Origin: Christensenella sp. UBA7588
Lineage (GTDB): Bacteria > Bacillota > Clostridia > Christensenellales > CAG-917
DNA length: 64,000 nucleotides
Reading direction: 5' to 3'
Assembly: GCA_002478945.1 (NCBI GenBank)
Contig: DLKM01000026.1
Coordinates: 348-64,347 of the forward strand
The position numbers were made by a program, and so were the translations under genes. Below the pieces are notes generated by a model. That model was given only the letters and a program-made list of their open reading frames with translations, was not told the DNA's origin and ran no database searches. Below, in pieces: positions 3,358 to 60,281 of this stretch; position 1 is the stretch's first letter, and each line of letters begins with the position of its first letter.

Positions 3358-4351
3358 TATAGCACCTTTTCACACGCCCTTTCCACGACGTATAGACGCA
3401 ATATTCTATAGTTTTTCTTTGTCTTGCAACCGTTTCGGCGCAGTTTTCGTCAAGCAAAGCGACCTGCTGTCCTACTCGTGCGAGAGTATCCCCCGTATCC
3501 ACGACGAACATATCCATACACACGTCGCCTATCACTTTGCAAGGCTTTTTGTCGATATAAACGTCGGAAGGGTTCTCTCTGTCAACTCCGTCGGCGTAGC
3601 CTCCGAAAACGACCGCCGTATTCGTGTCTCTTGTCACGGCGTAGTTTCCGTAACTTACGCACTCTCCCGCTTTCAGCCGTCTGCTTTCCAGTACTTGCGA
3701 AAACACGCTCATTGCGCCCGTATATGCGCCGATTCCAACCCTTACGGCATCGAATCGCAATCTCTCGTTCGCAAGCGAATGTGTGGACGCAAGATGCACT
3801 TTGGCATTTGGATAAACGTCTTTAACGGCGCAAACGCATCTGTTGAATTCCTCAAGTTGCGCCAAAGTTCCGTCACGAAGATGCGAATACACTCCTTCGA
3901 CGTTAAATCCGCTCGTTTTGAGCATTCTAACGGTATTTTTTGCACCGTCGTAATCAAAGCCGAGTCTGTGCATACCGCTGTCGACTTTGATATGAATTCT
4001 TGCGCCGTGCGTATCGATTGCGCCCTTTTTGGCAAGAGCGCGCAACGTTTGCACTTGTTCTAAGTTGTGAATTGCGACGATTGCACCGAGTTTTATCGCA
4101 GAGCGCAATTCCTCGCAGGCGCACGCGCACAATAATATATCCTTGCGTATGCCCGACTTTTTCAGCTTGCGAGCTTCCTCTACGGTAACGACGCCGAAAG
4201 CCGAAACGACGTTTTCCGTCGCTTTTGCCACTTGCACCGATCCCATACCGTAAGCGTCTGCTTTTACCATAAGCAAAATCGGCACGCCGACACTTTCTTT
4301 TATCTTTGCGATATTGCGCCTTATTACGTCAAGGTCAACGACGATTTTCAG
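3302..4351 (-). CDS. alr: Alanine racemase (start extended upstream of the track ORF to a probable CTG)
   Basis: PLP-lysine motif VKADAYGMG. The frame stays open 22 codons upstream of the listed GTG (LKIVVDLDVIRRNIAKIKESVG) back to a TAG. GAGGTGG lies about 9 nt before CTG at 4351-4349. Confidence 0.8.
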   Translation of the reverse strand: MKIVVDLDVIRRNIAKIKESVGVPILLMVKADAYGMGSVQVAKATENVVSAFGVVTVEEARKLKKSGIRKDILLCACACEELRSAIKLGAIVAIHNLEQVQTLRALAKKGAIDTHGARIHIKVDSGMHRLGFDYDGAKNTVRMLKTSGFNVEGVYSHLRDGTLAQLEEFNRCVCAVKDVYPNAKVHLASTHSLANERLRFDAVRVGIGAYTGAMSVFSQVLESRRLKAGECVSYGNYAVTRDTNTAVVFGGYADGVDRENPSDVYIDKKPCKVIGDVCMDMFVVDTGDTLARVGQQVALLDENCAETVARQRKTIEYCVYTSWKGRVKRCYNGQKTSEKNCRRKSCEDD

Positions 4352-20979: not shown

Positions 20980-21984
20980 ATGAGTGTAACATTTGAAGGT
21001 TATGAAAGAAGAATAGACAAAATCAACGGCGTTCTTGCTCAATACGGCATCAAGGACCTCGAAGAAGCAAGAGACCTCTGCCTCTCCAAAGGCGTTGATT
21101 GCAACGCAATCGTCAAAGGCATTCAACCTATCTGCTTTGAAAACGCAGTTTGGGCATACACCGTCGGATGCGCAATCGCAATCAAGAAAAATTGCGTAAA
21201 CGCGGCAGACGCGGCAGAAGCTATCGGCGAAGGTTTGCAATCGTTCTGCATCCCCGGCTCCGTTGCAGAGCAACGTAAAGTCGGTCTCGGACACGGCAAC
21301 CTCGCGGCAATGCTCCTCAGAGAAAGCACCAAGTGCTTCGCTTTCCTCGCAGGTCACGAATCGTTTGCGGCGGCAGAAGGCGCAATCGGCATTGCAAGAA
21401 CTGCAAACAAAGTCAGAAAAACTCCGCTCAAAGTCATCCTCAACGGTCTCGGCAAAGACGCGGCATTTATCATCTCTCGTATCAACGGCTTCACTTACGT
21501 CCAAACCAAAATGGACTACTTCAGCGGCGAAGTGAAAGTTGTCAAAGAGACTCCCTACTCCAACGGCGAGCGCGCGGCAGTCAGAGTGTACGGCGCAGAC
21601 GACGTAACCGAAGGCGTTGCGATTATGCGTCTCGAGGACGTTGACGTTTCTATCACGGGCAACTCCACCAACCCCACTCGTTTCCAACACCCCGTCGCAG
21701 GCACTTACAAGAAATGGTGCGTTGACAACGGCAAAAAATACTTCTCCGTTGCGTCAGGTGGCGGCACGGGTCGTACTCTCCACCCCGATAATATGGCGGC
21801 AGGTCCTGCGTCCTACGGTATGACCGACACGATGGGTAGAATGCACTCCGACGCACAATTTGCAGGTTCTTCATCCGTTCCCGCACACGTCGAAATGATG
21901 GGCTTAATCGGTATGGGCAACAACCCGATGGTCGGTGCAAGCGTTGCTTGCGCAGTCGCAGTACAAGAAGGTTTGACAAAGTAA
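20980..21984 (+). CDS. GGGtGRT family protein (function unknown)
   Basis: Contains the eponymous ASGGGTGRTLHP motif. Confidence 0.75.
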   Translation: MSVTFEGYERRIDKINGVLAQYGIKDLEEARDLCLSKGVDCNAIVKGIQPICFENAVWAYTVGCAIAIKKNCVNAADAAEAIGEGLQSFCIPGSVAEQRKVGLGHGNLAAMLLRESTKCFAFLAGHESFAAAEGAIGIARTANKVRKTPLKVILNGLGKDAAFIISRINGFTYVQTKMDYFSGEVKVVKETPYSNGERAAVRVYGADDVTEGVAIMRLEDVDVSITGNSTNPTRFQHPVAGTYKKWCVDNGKKYFSVASGGGTGRTLHPDNMAAGPASYGMTDTMGRMHSDAQFAGSSSVPAHVEMMGLIGMGNNPMVGASVACAVAVQEGLTK

Positions 21985-22333
21985 GTTGTGCGCAAAGCAA
22001 CGATTGATTGTTTGCGTAGCAAATAGCACCAGTAACACAAAAGGCACTCAACAGAGTGCCTTTTCTGGTGCAGAATAATCGGTCGCTTGTGCAGTAGCAG
22101 TACAAGAAGGTCTCACGAAGTAATCGTTTGCACAAGCGAACGAAAAATCTTTGCGTAAGCAAAGTAGAACCAAAACACAAAAGCACCTGAAAAGGTGCTT
22201 TTTGGGTTCTATAAATTGCGTTGCTTGCGCAGTCGCTGTTCAAGAAGGTTTGACGAAGTAAGAAAAACCTACTAAATAGTAGCATTTTGAAGAATATAGC
22301 ACCTATCCAAAAATTGCGATAGGTGCTATTTTT
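21943..22333 (+). repeat. Tandem array (period ~137-140 bp) of the last 13 codons plus stop of the GGGtGRT gene, each copy followed by its own terminator
   Basis: The 42-nt copies lie at 21943-21984 (in the gene), 22082-22123 and 22220-22261. All translate to VACAVAVQEGLTK-stop. Terminator hairpins lie at 22043-22066, 22182-22203 and 22297-22333. Confidence 0.9.
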
Positions 22334-24734: not shown

Positions 24735-26102
24735 TTATTGTTCGCGAACAATATCGGTTTGAGCGAAATTCTTGATTTCTTTCATATGTGCGTTTGCTTC
24801 TTCAAACGTGTTTTGCGGAGAGCCTTTATGCACGTAAGTCTTGCGCTTAAGCACGAAGAAGAATTTGCCGTCAGCCGCTTCAATCGTGTAAGTACCGATA
24901 ATGGCGTGAGATTTGAAACGATTGATTGCTCTTTCGCAGAACTCTTTCGTCGTGTAGTTGGAACTCTCGTAAATATTGTTTCCGCTGGCGTCGTAGAGAG
25001 TATAGAAATACTCTTGAGAGCCGTCGGGCTTATCGACGTGTTCTATAACGTATTTACCGTAAATGACGGACTCGTCAAAGCCTGCGACCTTTTCGGGAGT
25101 TTTACGAACGTTCTTGGGCGTTTTGAGTGCCGCAAACGGAGGCGCGACTTTCTTGATGACGACCTTTTTATCCTTGTTTGCATTGAGGGCTTCGAGTTCT
25201 GCCTCTTTTGCCGCAAGTTTCTTTGCGAGAGCGGCAGACGGAGTGCCTTCGTAGTAGCAAGCGTCCTCGGGGTCGTAATAATAACCCTCATAGGTGCCGT
25301 CATACTTGGACCAATCGTCGGGTTTCTTCTTGACGACCTTCTTCGTAGTCGGCTTCTCAACGCCTTTCTTTACAGGAACTTCTTCCTTGACAGGTTCGGG
25401 TTCGACTACGGGTTCTTCCTTGACAGGTTCCTCTTTAACGGGAGCAGGTTCTTCTTTTTCGGCTACGGGTTCAGCCTCTTGAACGGGCGCAACCTCTTGA
25501 ACGGGTTCTGCAACTGGTTCTGCAGGGACAACGGGTTCTGCGGGAGCGGGTGTTTCGACAGCCTCGACAGGTGCAGGTTCTTGTACGGGAGCAGGTTTTT
25601 CTTTAACTTCCTCTTTCACAGGCTCTGCAACGGGTTCCGCAACGGGTTCCGCAGGAGCGACGGTTTCCGCTACGGGTTCCGCCACGGTTTCTTCTTTAAC
25701 CTCGTCGGCGGCAACTTGCTCTTGAACTTGTTCTTGCGCTTGTGCCTCCTCTGCGACAGGTTCGTCCTGCACTACGGGTTCCTCTCTCTGCTCTTGAACG
25801 GGTTGTTCGTCAACGTCGGGAACTACGGGAACGTCGTCGACGTCGTCAACGTCGTTACCTTTCAGTTTATTGCGCAATCTCGCAAGTTTCTGATTGAGGC
25901 GCAATTCCTCGCCCGTAACGCCGTATTCGGAATAAAACTCGTTTTCCTCTTTGTCCTCTTGAGCGTCTTTCTTTTCTTTGACCGCTTTCAAAATATTGAA
26001 AATGAGAACGGCAATAAGCGCCGCCGCTGCCAATGCGAGAGCAATGATAATCACGAGTGCGCTAAAACCATCGATAGGACCGAGTTTGAGGTTATCTAAC
26101 AT
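24735..26102 (-). CDS. Membrane-anchored protein with an E/P/V/A-rich spacer and a C-terminal tandem YegP (DUF1508)-like domain
   Basis: N-terminal TM helix (FSALVIIIALALAAAALIAVLIF). Repeats of the EPVAEPVAEPV type. C-terminus YGKYVIEHVDKPDGSQEYFYTLYDASGNNIYESSNYTTKEFCERAI...DGKFFFVLKRK resembles YegP repeats. Confidence 0.65.
   Translation of the reverse strand: MLDNLKLGPIDGFSALVIIIALALAAAALIAVLIFNILKAVKEKKDAQEDKEENEFYSEYGVTGEELRLNQKLARLRNKLKGNDVDDVDDVPVVPDVDEQPVQEQREEPVVQDEPVAEEAQAQEQVQEQVAADEVKEETVAEPVAETVAPAEPVAEPVAEPVKEEVKEKPAPVQEPAPVEAVETPAPAEPVVPAEPVAEPVQEVAPVQEAEPVAEKEEPAPVKEEPVKEEPVVEPEPVKEEVPVKKGVEKPTTKKVVKKKPDDWSKYDGTYEGYYYDPEDACYYEGTPSAALAKKLAAKEAELEALNANKDKKVVIKKVAPPFAALKTPKNVRKTPEKVAGFDESVIYGKYVIEHVDKPDGSQEYFYTLYDASGNNIYESSNYTTKEFCERAINRFKSHAIIGTYTIEAADGKFFFVLKRKTYVHKGSPQNTFEEANAHMKEIKNFAQTDIVREQ
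25385..25820 (-). repeat. Low-complexity coding repeat (P/E/V/A-rich) inside the YegP-like gene
   Basis: Reiterated GAACC/GGTTC-rich short units. They also create a full-length antisense shadow ORF. Confidence 0.8.
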
Positions 26103-30989: not shown

Positions 30990-31410
30990 AATGCAACTTA
31001 CCCCCCCTTCCTCAGGTGTTTCCCCTAAATTAACACTCTAACAAAGTTAGCGTCATAATTCCTTGAATGCAACATTACCCCTTCCCTTCGGGCTTTCCCC
31101 TATTGCTCAAATAGATGTCATTTCTCTTTTTAAGCAAACATCGTTCGCAAGAGGGGAACTCGGCACTCACATAGATAGGTATCGTTCACTTGTTATGCCA
31201 CTCGTTCGCCAACGAAAAGAACAACACTCGTTGGCTCACTTGTACAATCCGTCAAGTTCGGCACTCAAAGGCTCGCCGCCTTGCGGCTCGAAGCTCCGAA
31301 TAAGCACATTCAGTTTATAGGTACGCCTTGAATAGGCACATTCCGTTAATAAGTGCGCTTCGAATAAGTGTGCGTTCGGGTGTGGGCAAAGCCCACCCGC
31401 AATTATTAAC
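30990..31410 (+). repeat. Dispersed structured intergenic element, copy B (duplicated pyrimidine block, iteron-rich right end)
   Basis: AATGCAACTTACCCCCCCTTCCTCAGGTGTTTCCCCT plus a second AATGCAACATTACCCCTTCCCTTCGGGCTTTCCCCT. Also CTCGGCACTCACATAGATAGGTATCGTTCACTTGTTATGCCAC, GTCAAGTTCGGCACTCAAAGGCTCGCCGCCTTGCGGCTCGAA and a terminal GTGGGC-AAA-GCCCAC hairpin. Confidence 0.85.
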
Positions 31411-44387: not shown

Positions 44388-44730
44388 AATACAACTTTCC
44401 CCCTTCCTCAGGTGTTTCCCCTATTCCGTTCCCCCTCTGCGCAATGCTTGAGGGAACCCACGGAACCGCTCCGCGGGGGGACACACTCGGTCTTCGCATA
44501 AATAGGGACTTTCGTCTTATTATGTCACGCGCTTTGTGCGCCGCTACGCAACGGAATGGCGCAGTGCTTGTACTAATTCGTCAAGCTCGACACTCGATTT
44601 GCTCGCCGCCTTGCGGCTCGAATTCCGTCTCCGAATAAGGTTTATTTTATCAACCTCAATGCCGCCTTGCGGCTCGAAATTCCGTCTCCGAATAAGAATA
44701 CTAGGTGTGGGCAACGCCCACCCTCAATTA
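44388..44730 (+). repeat. Dispersed structured intergenic element, copy C (fills the whole ybeY-era spacer)
   Basis: Near-identical to copy E over about 240 nt. The GCCGCCTTGCGGCTCGAA(A)TTCCGTCTCCGAATAAG block is duplicated. Ends with a terminal GTGGGC-AAC-GCCCAC hairpin. Confidence 0.9.
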
Positions 44731-57474: not shown

Positions 57475-57750
57475 TTAATAGAGTGCATTATACCACTCTA
57501 AATGCAACTTTCCCCCTCTTTCCGGACACGCCGGTATTTCTCCCACCACTCGGTTAGTGACATTTCTCTACAATATTATTCATCGCTCGTGGGGGCGACA
57601 CTCGGCACTCACATAGATAGGTATCGTTCACTTGTTATGTCACTCGTTCGCAAACGAAAGAACAACACTCGTTTGCTCACTTGTACTATCCGTCAAGTTC
57701 GGCGCTCAATCGCTCGCCGCCTTGCGGCTCGAAATCACGCCTTCGAAAGA
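57475..57750 (+). repeat. Dispersed structured intergenic element, copy D (between the topoisomerase B and A genes)
   Basis: The left half matches copy A (TTAATAGAGTGC...CCCCCTCTTTCCGGACACGCCGGTATTTCTCCCACCACTCG). The right half matches copy B (CTCGGCACTCACATAGATAGGTATCGTTCACTTGTTATG.CAC TCGTTCGC.AACGA...). Confidence 0.9.
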
Positions 57751-59871: not shown

Positions 59872-60118
59872 AATGCAAGTTTCCCCCTTCCTCAGGTGTT
59901 TCCCCTATTCCGTTCCCCCTCTGCGCAATGCTTGAGGGAACCCACGGAACTGCTCCGCAGGGGGCAACACTCAGCACTCGCATAGATAGGGGCAATTCTC
60001 TAATTATGCCACGCGCTTTGTGCGCCGCTACGCAACAGAATGGCGCAGTCGCTTGTACTAATCGTCAAGCTCGGCGTTCGATTTGCTCGCCGCCTTGCGA
60101 CTCGAAACTTCGATTAAG
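59872..60118 (+). repeat. Dispersed structured intergenic element, copy E
   Basis: Near-identical to copy C: AATGCAAGTTTCCCCCTTCCTCAGGTGTTTCCCCTATTCCGTTCCCCCTCTGCGCAATGCTTGAGGGAACCCACGGAAC... Confidence 0.9.
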
Positions 60119-60130
60119 TTTCCGTTATTT

Positions 60131-60281
60131 TTTCATCAATGATTTAAGAGAGAATATCCGTCATAGAACAAGAAAGAGCCACGCTCTCGGCAACCCTAAT
60201 TTACTAATCGTAAATGAGTTGTCGAGAGTGTGGCTCTGACGCAGTTATCTGGCGGATAGTCCGCTTAAATCATTGATGAAA
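60131..60281 (+). repeat. Long-hairpin module enclosed by an 18-bp inverted repeat that includes the last 5 codons and stop of the hydrolase gene
   Basis: TTTCATCAATGATTTAAG (60131-60148) is the inverted repeat of CTTAAATCATTGATGAAA (60264-60281). The inner 16-bp stem is AGAGCCACGCTCTCGG/GTCGAGAGTGTGGCTCT (60175-60237), with the same apex as H1. Confidence 0.8.

Follow-up and report, generated by a model that had tools for sequence, protein, structure and literature searches.

A modular intergenic repeat with covarying stem-loops, probably of the mosaic interspersed type, in uncultured gut Clostridia

Five copies of the element in the window

The 64,000-nt stretch analysed here (the window) is part of contig DLKM01000026.1 of Christensenella sp. 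UBA7588 and carries five copies, A to E, of an intergenic element laid out as a chain of stem-loops with almost invariant single-stranded linkers between them. An original prediction, made from these letters, had proposed that the element is a functional folded RNA or single-stranded DNA, with compensatory base changes in its central hairpin and a conserved pair of mutually exclusive hairpins. As judged from the pattern of paired substitutions, the region holds folded stem-loops under some constraint, and this part of the proposal stands; the either/or pairing scheme does not. The family is probably a previously undescribed group of modular (mosaic) interspersed intergenic repeats of uncultured human-gut Clostridia related to metagenome-assembled genomes (MAGs) labelled "Christensenella sp.".

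All five copies lie on the + strand, and the neighbouring housekeeping genes are on the - strand. One copy is located upstream of a gene for a glpD-like oxidoreductase and downstream of a pyrophosphatase gene; the other spacers are ybeY/era, parE/parC, that between a hydrolase gene and parE, and one near the start of the window. Direct reading of the sequence found every motif of the original prediction, including the stems of copies A to E, at the coordinates it had given. The features are as follows.

808-959, + strand: core of copy A, 152 nt, TGCGCC/GGCGCA type; nhmmer and covariance-model match, 146 bits
870-897, + strand: central hairpin of copy A (TGCGCC 870-875, 16-nt loop, GGCGCA 892-897); the helix covaries in the family
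938-950, + strand: terminal hairpin of copy A, GCCAC-CTT-GCGGC, with a single A.C mismatch on the + strand, equal to G.U on the - strand
30997-31397, + strand: whole composite of copy B, boundaries approximate
31095-31158, + strand: left module of copy B, itself a hairpin (TTCCCCTATTGC/GCAAGAGGGGAA)
31149-31296, + strand: core of copy B, GCCAACGA/TCGTTGGC central type; nhmmer and covariance-model match, 126 bits
31203-31207, + strand: TCGTT, proposed competitor upstream of the central hairpin of copy B; same motif in copy D
31208-31235, + strand: central hairpin of copy B (GCCAACGA 31208-31215, 12-nt loop, TCGTTGGC 31228-31235)
44424-44476, + strand: left-module hairpins of copy C (TTCCGT...ACGGAA 44424-44465; CCGC-TCC-GCGG 44466-44476); both stems covary in the family
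44476-44626, + strand: core of copy C; nhmmer and covariance-model match, 128.5 bits
44537-44563, + strand: central hairpin of copy C (TGCGCC 44537-44542, 15-nt loop, GGCGCA 44558-44563)
44661-44692, + strand: extra, solitary 3' terminal module GCCGCCTTGCGGCTCGAAATTCCGTCTCCGAA near copy C
57591-57737, + strand: core of copy D, between parE and parC; nhmmer and covariance-model match
57650-57676, + strand: central hairpin of copy D (GCAAACGA 57650-57657, 11-nt loop, TCGTTTGC 57669-57676)
59908-59960, + strand: left-module hairpins of copy E, including CTGC-TCC-GCAG at 59950-59960
59960-60110, + strand: core of copy E; nhmmer and covariance-model match, 153.5 bits
60021-60047, + strand: central hairpin of copy E (TGCGCC 60021-60026, 15-nt loop, GGCGCA 60042-60047)

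The conserved core of 152 nt is common to all five copies and contains the near-invariant blocks CATAGAT, TTATGCCAC, GTAC, CGTCAAG, TCGGCRCTC and GCCGCCTTGCGGC, with variable left and right modules outside it. The two ends of the element are unrelated, a C-rich module being found on one side and GCCGCCTTGCGGC on the other. The composite of copy B consists of an extra C-rich left-module fragment, the hairpin-forming left module, the core, tandem units and a G+C-rich hairpin.

Just 7 substitutions in 134 aligned nt separate copies B and D, two of them being the paired C-to-A and G-to-T changes of the central stem (chance p ~0.015). Between copies C and E, 89% identical across 178 nt, there are 23 substitutions in 236 nt, and a paired change again accounts for two of them (chance p ~0.03). 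The B/D pair of changes and the exchange of CCGC/GCGG in copy C for CTGC/GCAG in copy E had both been pointed out in the original prediction; both are real and are matched by compensation throughout the family (more than 150 copies), the counts for the small hairpin being given below.

The whole window was compared with Rfam (release 15) at gathering thresholds, and the sole match was a tRNA-Leu; relaxed-threshold scans of two copies gave chance-level matches only. Coding potential was rejected, since indels of 1-2 nt separate the copies and a conserved-looking adjacent stretch occurs only in a spurious open reading frame (ORF) overlapping the element.

Covariation of the stems and the alternative pairing

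A strict pattern search recovered 20 loci from 11 species-level genomes, which are MAGs labelled Christensenella sp. (including the complete 1.65-Mb CP091723.1), uncultured Clostridia or Clostridiales, and similar; the host genomes are small, about 1.6 Mb. With a second pattern, in which the central and terminal hairpins were deliberately left unconstrained, at least 116 loci were found in human-gut metagenomes. nhmmer run on the collected loci (given L numbers below) produced 168 matches, 155 of them near full length and comprising 146 distinct cores and 73 distinct central segments. Plasmid and phage collections gave no match to the element, and a full-text search of the literature, literal motif included, found no report of the family.

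RNAalifold, a check suggested with the original prediction, was run on a MAFFT alignment of the family, and the central stem emerged in a shifted register because MAFFT had misaligned the two stem classes. That alignment was replaced by one made with a covariance model, R1, which was built from our own structure annotation and to which 127 matches were realigned; the R1 alignment is fitted to the supplied structure. Many of the metagenome copies are related by descent, and the cell counts below exceed the number of independent events.

In 145 of 153 copies the arms of the central stem form a mismatch-free Watson-Crick helix at least 6 bp long. At least nine versions of it are present in multiple copies: TGCGCC/GGCGCA, TGTGAC/GTCACA, TGTGCC/GGCACA, TGCGTGGC/GCCACGCA, GCGGACGA/TCGTCCGC, ACGGGCGA/TCGCCCGT, GCAAACGA/TCGTTTGC, GCCAACGA/TCGTTGGC and GCAGACGA/TCGTCTGC. 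In the R1 alignment 96.3% of its cells were paired and all six base pairs had two-sided changes, one pair being CG in 60 copies, GC in 23, UA in 22, AU in 7 and UG in 1. Paired positions that vary independently would have spoken against the original prediction, and this was not the case. The covariation score of the whole structure was 0.191, versus 0.081 +/- 0.003 for shuffled alignments (none of 500 reached 0.191) and at most 0.061 when the partners were slid by 1-3 columns.

Three further stems covary, giving four in total. The terminal GCCGC/GCGGC helix was paired in 98.7% of cells and had two pairs with changes on both sides, in the form of GC<>AU and CG<>UA/GC exchanges; one pair was CG in 103 copies, UA in 13 and GC in 5, with no half-changed wobble and 3 unpaired cells. 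The outer arms of the left module were found as CGCCGT/ACGGCG (39 copies), TCACCGT/ACGGTGA (19), TTCCGT/ACGGAA (6), TCGCCGT/ACGGCGA (6) and others, and the small left-module hairpin as CCGC/GCGG (29) or CTGC/GCAG (5), without a single half-changed intermediate. The CTTGtAC/GTCAAG helix is invariant except for a C.A mismatch in about 26 copies. Folding energies of single sequences were not significantly different from those of shuffles (z -0.01 to -1.7), and the case for folding therefore rests on covariation, not on thermodynamic stability.

Some candidate pairings had less support. An outer helix of 2-3 bp and the inner part of the CATAG...TTATG hairpin paired in just 62-64% of cells and are not supported in a fixed register. 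A long-range pairing predicted on the - strand between an arm of the terminal hairpin and CGTCAAG was dropped, as inspection showed the flanking base to be without covariation.

The two best-supported helices are almost free of wobble pairs. Central stem cells numbered 690 Watson-Crick against 3 with G.T on the + strand and 5 with A.C on the + strand (that is, G.T on the - strand), and terminal stem cells 607 Watson-Crick against 5 with G.T on the + strand and 5 with G.T on the - strand. Wobble pairs on one strand are commonly accepted in the helices of functional RNAs. Near-pure Watson-Crick pairing without strand asymmetry suggests that the structure most likely acts at the DNA level; by its substitution pattern it seems better suited to DNA hairpins, or to spread from a few intact "master" copies.

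The original prediction also held that a segment upstream of the central stem can pair with its 5' arm instead, that both hairpins are preserved, and that the competing stems resemble an attenuator or switch; on this reading a riboswitch-like element would choose between termination and processing. Partner segments are present in the window (TCGTT in copies B and D; GCGC-TTTGT-GCGC in copies A, C and E), and each of the five copies allows the upstream segment to pair with the 5' arm. In A, C and E this segment repeats the 5' arm, GCGC being self-complementary, and in B and D it repeats the first part of the 3' arm; the two schemes thus lack homology. In the family alignment 78% of the alternative-pair cells were pairable, many of them as G.U, compared with 62% for shuffles. 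A control slid by -2 was pairable in 75% of cells, and its covariation score was about equal to that of the alternative pairing (0.26 versus 0.30). Pairing of the upstream segment with the 3' arm behaved like its pairing with the 5' arm.

The alternative hairpin was stronger than with shuffled upstream segments for TGCGC..TGCGCC, GCAAACGA, GCCAACGA and one TGCAC..TGTGCC copy (about 44% of copies), and for the commonest variant it reached -6.4 kcal/mol (p ~0.02). It was at the level of shuffles in most variant classes, namely GCGGACGA (p 0.43), ACGGGCGA (0.54), TGCGTGGC (0.32), TGTGAC (~0.5) and the CGTCC copies. A conserved pair of mutually exclusive hairpins was not borne out, the competitor helix being without covariation. 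One copy, L021, does have a genuine compensatory change in the alternative pairing (TGCAC with TGTGCC), which favours a switch. Elsewhere the upstream segment keeps TGCGC beside TGTGAC/GTCACA stems and TCGTTC beside the 3' arm TCGCCCGT, and four copies have CGTCC in its place, which forms an outer helix with a GGACG further downstream. The alternative hairpins have energies of -2 to -6.4 kcal/mol and the main stems -8 to -13, the main stem being stabler by 4-10 kcal/mol (in copy B, -10.5 versus -2.0).

No terminator-like site was found in the spacers of copies B and D, no T-run follows the conserved hairpins, and the two regions scanned for promoters (copies B and D) had no match above chance. 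With attenuators and riboswitch expression platforms the element shares the competition of two hairpins for one arm, in some copies only; it differs from them in having no terminator or T-run, no fixed orientation or sense 5'-leader position (both orientations and convergent spacers are occupied), no covariation of the competing helix and, its neighbours being unrelated, no common downstream function, and it has no Rfam match. The attenuator or switch reading is essentially excluded.

Modules, genomic location and turnover between strains

The family freely combines left modules of three types, central parts of two classes and several 3' modules, and its copies are single, tandem or nested and often truncated. 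The solitary 3' module at 44661-44692 indicates that modules are able to occur alone.

Several repeats adjoin or recur beside the copies. Tandem units of 15-17 nt (CGAATAAGCACATTCCGTTAATAAGTRCGCTYCGA / CGAATAAG type) abut the right side of the core at 31296-31376 and 44622-44700 of the window; units of the CGAATAAGCACATTCCGTTAATAAGTRCGCTYCGA type are found in most metagenome copies and differ in number from copy to copy. The G+C-rich hairpin GGGTGTGGGCAAAGCCCACCC (31377-31397 and 44706-44726) is a recurrent intergenic module with no T-run behind it; in other loci (AATTATT)n-like runs come after it. A second repeat, with 70% identity over 105 nt between 1033-1137 and 60165-60269, adjoins copies A and E. 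It has the form GATGAAGAACAAGGAAGA...GGCAACCCTAATTTACT-N5-GTAAATGAGTTG..., recurs in many metagenome 3' flanks and looks like a separate structured module, with no Rfam match at gathering thresholds. In the 3' flanks of L027, L121, L014 and L041, short variable hairpins form arrays in which each is followed by the constant heptamer ATATCAC (for example TGCAACGAAGTTGCA-ATATCAC-TTGCGCAAAGCGCAA-ATATCAC-...); these arrays resemble those of repetitive extragenic palindromes (REP) and have an apparent covariation of their own. A module of about 70-100 nt, CACCAAGCAGACAATCTTGCGAAACTGCGGCAGGAGTTTTTGTCC...CTGATAGCAAAGATTTT, was found in L003 (~3380-3450), L002, L045, L026, L099, L114 and L057/L094, and no supported ORF was found in it; in L057/L094 the module is present in tandem, and there a cassette replacement has it as its right-hand breakpoint.

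Left modules of types II and III hold a paralogue of the CATAG hairpin region of the core (CCACCACTCAAATAGGGGCAATTCTCTAC versus GGCACTCACATAGATAGGGACATTTCTCTC), located at 678-766 and 57512-57600 of the window and in the left modules of many loci. Within the core, TCGGCRCTCA is present twice as a direct repeat. This paralogue and this repeat suggest that internal duplication has enlarged the element.

All but one of the 155 copies are intergenic, and their neighbours are unrelated housekeeping genes. With metagenome genes called by a simple codon-usage model, filled spacers were tandem in 82 cases, convergent in 29 and divergent in 4, compared with 505, 72 and 100 for the empty spacers of the same contigs (chi-square p = 2e-6); the element avoids divergent promoter regions, being ten-fold rarer between divergent than between convergent genes (odds ratio 0.10, p = 7e-7). 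Operon spacers carrying it include ybeY-era, parE-parC and pgk-tpi, and gene 3' ends are also occupied. Of 84 copies in co-directional spacers, 61 have the - strand as sense strand and 23 the + strand, as in pgk-element-tpi (p = 4e-5). In CP091723.1 all five copies are antisense to the local genes. A link of orientation to replication, which had been an impression from 30 copies, was not detected in a corrected, though weak, test on 150.

Comparison of orthologous sites revealed turnover. The same spacer measures 655 nt in L082 and 56 nt in L049, whose flanks are 98-99% identical, an entire composite of 600 nt being present in one and absent from the other. At the site of copy D the orthologous spacer of CP091723.1 is 76 nt long and without the element, whereas downstream of parC it is CP091723.1 that has a copy and the window that has just 38 nt. 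At single-copy orthologous sites core identity in many pairs roughly follows that of the flanks. Three pairs depart from this: their flanks are 96-98% identical, but the copies at the site have only 70-72% identity, no more than random copy pairs do (75 +/- 7%). In one such swapped pair, aligned in detail, the exchange breakpoints fall in sequence that recurs beside other copies. Alignments of sites further revealed tandem extra copies, a nested insertion in one copy, a short repeat at which sequence had been deleted, and an internal stretch of 500-600 nt that had been replaced, its breakpoints falling within shared modules.

Mobilising genes were looked for around the copies. When 927 neighbouring proteins were clustered all against all, no gene turned out to be multi-copy; no TnpB, IscB, IS110-like or any repeated gene lies within about 7 kb of the 155 copies, and there was no RAYT candidate in the neighbourhoods (up to 14 kb around each copy). 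Two large "empty" sites were found to hold a GmrSD restriction gene and ordinary genes, and no transposases. The GmrSD-type restriction endonuclease gene (Pfam GmrSD_N and GmrSD_C), at L132 5413-7158, occupies the same site as the repeat in L062 (3356-4036), the flanks being 94-100% identical. Spacers that bear the repeat may double as insertion hot spots for accessory or defence genes. In L004 and L014, runs of N (masked or unassembled sequence) lie exactly inside repeat composites, which is consistent with the repeats confusing or breaking MAG assemblies.

Interpretation and comparison with known repeats

All three hallmarks of mosaic repeats were found: an extragenic, modular, multi-copy build, compensated stem-loops, and polymorphism by presence, absence and replacement. 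We consider it probable that the element is a mosaic interspersed intergenic repeat similar to the bacterial interspersed mosaic elements (BIME), BOX and the neisserial intergenic mosaic elements (NIME), and that its hairpins are kept for recognition or propagation. The folded stem-loops and conserved linkers would be what allows a copy to propagate or be retained, with the hairpin serving as recognition structure for a trans-acting mobilisation or recombination activity, likeliest on DNA as a single-stranded hairpin or a cruciform. Spread would be restricted to copies with intact stems, and ectopic recombination in shared modules would shuffle the stem "cassettes" and yield the mosaic. Where the element is co-transcribed in operons, its hairpins may incidentally affect mRNA stability or processing.

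Several observations weigh against this interpretation. Filled and empty sites with flanks 94-99% identical had no target-site duplication or clean junction, the whole spacer being replaced; no terminal inverted repeats join the ends in three composites; and no transposase or multi-copy gene adjoins any copy, so mobility is inferred from distribution. A link between orientation and replication is expected of single-strand-DNA transposons, but with GC skew corrected for coding strand none was detected (86 versus 64 of 150 copies; the test is weak on short contigs). Mismatches compatible with G.U on the - strand are in mild excess in the CTTGtAC/GTCAAG helix (27 to 1) and in the left-module stem (about 7 to 0), although many of the copies concerned probably go back to one event. 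The conserved unpaired linkers could reflect RNA-protein rather than DNA-protein contacts, and the 61:23 orientation bias, like the excess of - strand G.U mismatches, could reflect a function at the transcript level.

The last points lead to the main rival, a role in the stability or processing of operon transcripts: the element would be a cis-acting RNA, read mostly from the - strand in operons and 3' untranslated regions, and act as an RNase barrier or processing site that tunes how strongly the genes on either side are expressed relative to each other, as is reported for REP/BIME and BOX elements. The occupied operon spacers and gene 3' ends, the depletion of divergent promoter regions, the prevalence of the - strand as sense strand, the - strand G.U mismatches and the invariance of the linkers all agree with it. 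Against it, 23 of the 84 co-directional copies are reversed and 29 copies lie between convergent genes, the two best-supported helices are nearly wobble-free and symmetric between strands, and the folding energies of single sequences are at shuffle level; moreover, the gain, loss and swap of whole elements among near-identical strains argue against a site-specific regulatory need. We regard this role as possible but clearly the less likely explanation. Less likely still is that the pairing is a mutational by-product, in which arm-templated repair or replication in quasi-palindromic DNA, or conversion between copies, corrects the arms of inert junk without structural selection. Such a process would account for the almost exclusive Watson-Crick pairing, the near lack of one-sided intermediates, the lack of strand asymmetry and the evident exchange of modules among copies. 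Loops of 11-16 nt are long for efficient intra-strand templating, however, stems that differ at several positions at once (TGCGCC versus GCGGACGA) are replacements and not corrected point mutations, and the similar behaviour of four independent stems beside invariant linkers looks like purifying selection on a defined architecture; the by-product explanation is improbable.

The combination of conserved linkers with variable stems and loops, in many copies and with no Rfam match, might also bring to mind a family of trans-acting structured RNA genes, such as guides or scaffolds of the omega-RNA, reRNA or bridge-RNA type for a transposon-encoded nuclease or recombinase. The neighbourhoods lack the nuclease, recombinase and repeated genes looked for, the regions of copies B and D have no promoter above chance, the copies are mosaic and often truncated, tandem or nested, and wobble-free pairing is atypical of RNA, which makes this origin very improbable indeed. 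A more specific form of the mosaic-repeat interpretation is that linkers and swappable paired stem "cassettes" make up the recognition grammar of a new folded single-stranded DNA system, with an HUH-type or other enzyme and without terminal inverted repeats or target duplications. We hold this to be speculative and rather unlikely; if true, such a system would move or recombine whole intergenic cassettes between strains of uncultured gut Christensenellales-like bacteria, and the family would then be the first of a new class of non-autonomous elements in bacteria and would drive fast evolution of intergenic regions and operon spacers.

The closest parallels are with known mosaic repeats. Like BIME/REP (palindromic units, PU) of enterobacteria, the element is strictly extragenic and of high copy number, consists of mosaics of stem-loop modules with compensatory stems, and is enriched at gene 3' ends and in operons, where it is co-transcribed. 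REP palindromes measure ~35 nt, carry a conserved head of the GTAG type, are frequently arranged as inverted pairs and have a link to RAYT transposases, whereas the present element has a core of 152 nt, at least four different hairpins and long invariant linkers; the comparison is one of description. In contrast to REP/REPIN, its copies are single or in direct tandem, and one inverted pair was seen, flanking a gene in L018. BOX of Streptococcus pneumoniae (boxA-boxB(n)-boxC) is likewise an intergenic Firmicute element of a few hundred nt with variable number and combination of modules and stable predicted stem-loops, does not require classical terminal inverted repeats of the kind found in miniature inverted-repeat transposable elements (MITE), and has no identified mobilising enzyme. 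The two were compared by description only and differ in host lineage (here uncultured gut Clostridia) and in modules. With NIMEs and "minimal mobile elements" of Neisseria the family shares repeat units shuffled between conserved genes, cassette exchange through shared sequence and, as in the GmrSD gene of L132, an accessory gene at the same site in another strain. NIMEs have 20-bp dRS3 inverted repeats at their borders, used as phage integration sites; no such bounding repeat was found here.

Mobile elements with defined ends are less similar. bcr1 of the Bacillus cereus group, another interspersed repeat from a Firmicute, is ~150 nt long, keeps its predicted secondary structure, has compensatory substitutions and varies in presence among strains; it shows MITE-like behaviour with a defined target duplication, TTTAT. 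Going by this description, the present family differs in that neither a target duplication nor a clean junction was seen, and it differs from a classical MITE in having neither terminal inverted repeats nor target-site duplications. In palindrome-associated transposable elements (PATEs) derived from IS200/IS605, orientation is tied to the direction of replication, with a tetra- or penta-nucleotide target at the left end and a cleavage site at the right. For end signals of this type, the ends of our element are not definable and its composites are mosaic.

With five copies in the 64-kb window, the family accounts for a sizeable unannotated share of intergenic DNA, which can be annotated with covariance model R1. 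It differs among strains whose genes are 97-99% identical, which makes it a useful strain marker and a likely source of MAG mis-assembly, and it may influence expression within essential operons (parE-parC, ybeY-era, pgk-tpi). Covariation, even if statistically solid, is not in itself a sign of a riboswitch or attenuator; in the present case it is the mark of a repeat family that is selfish or structural. If a mobilising activity were found, the strict Watson-Crick stems, the invariant linkers and the lack of terminal repeats could point to an unusual mechanism.

Two other repeats were noted in the window. Three tandem copies of GCGTTGCTTGCGCAGTCGCAGTACAAGAAGGTTTGACAAAGTAAG, spaced by ~139 nt and 80-93% identical over 45 nt, lie at 21941-22262, downstream of the + strand gene 20980-21984. 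Degenerate 12-nt repeats (GCAACGGGTTCC and variants) are found at 25390-25700, within a 455-aa ORF on the - strand (24735-26102), and imply a repetitive low-complexity segment in the protein. One protein of the window also recurs in gut metagenome assemblies.

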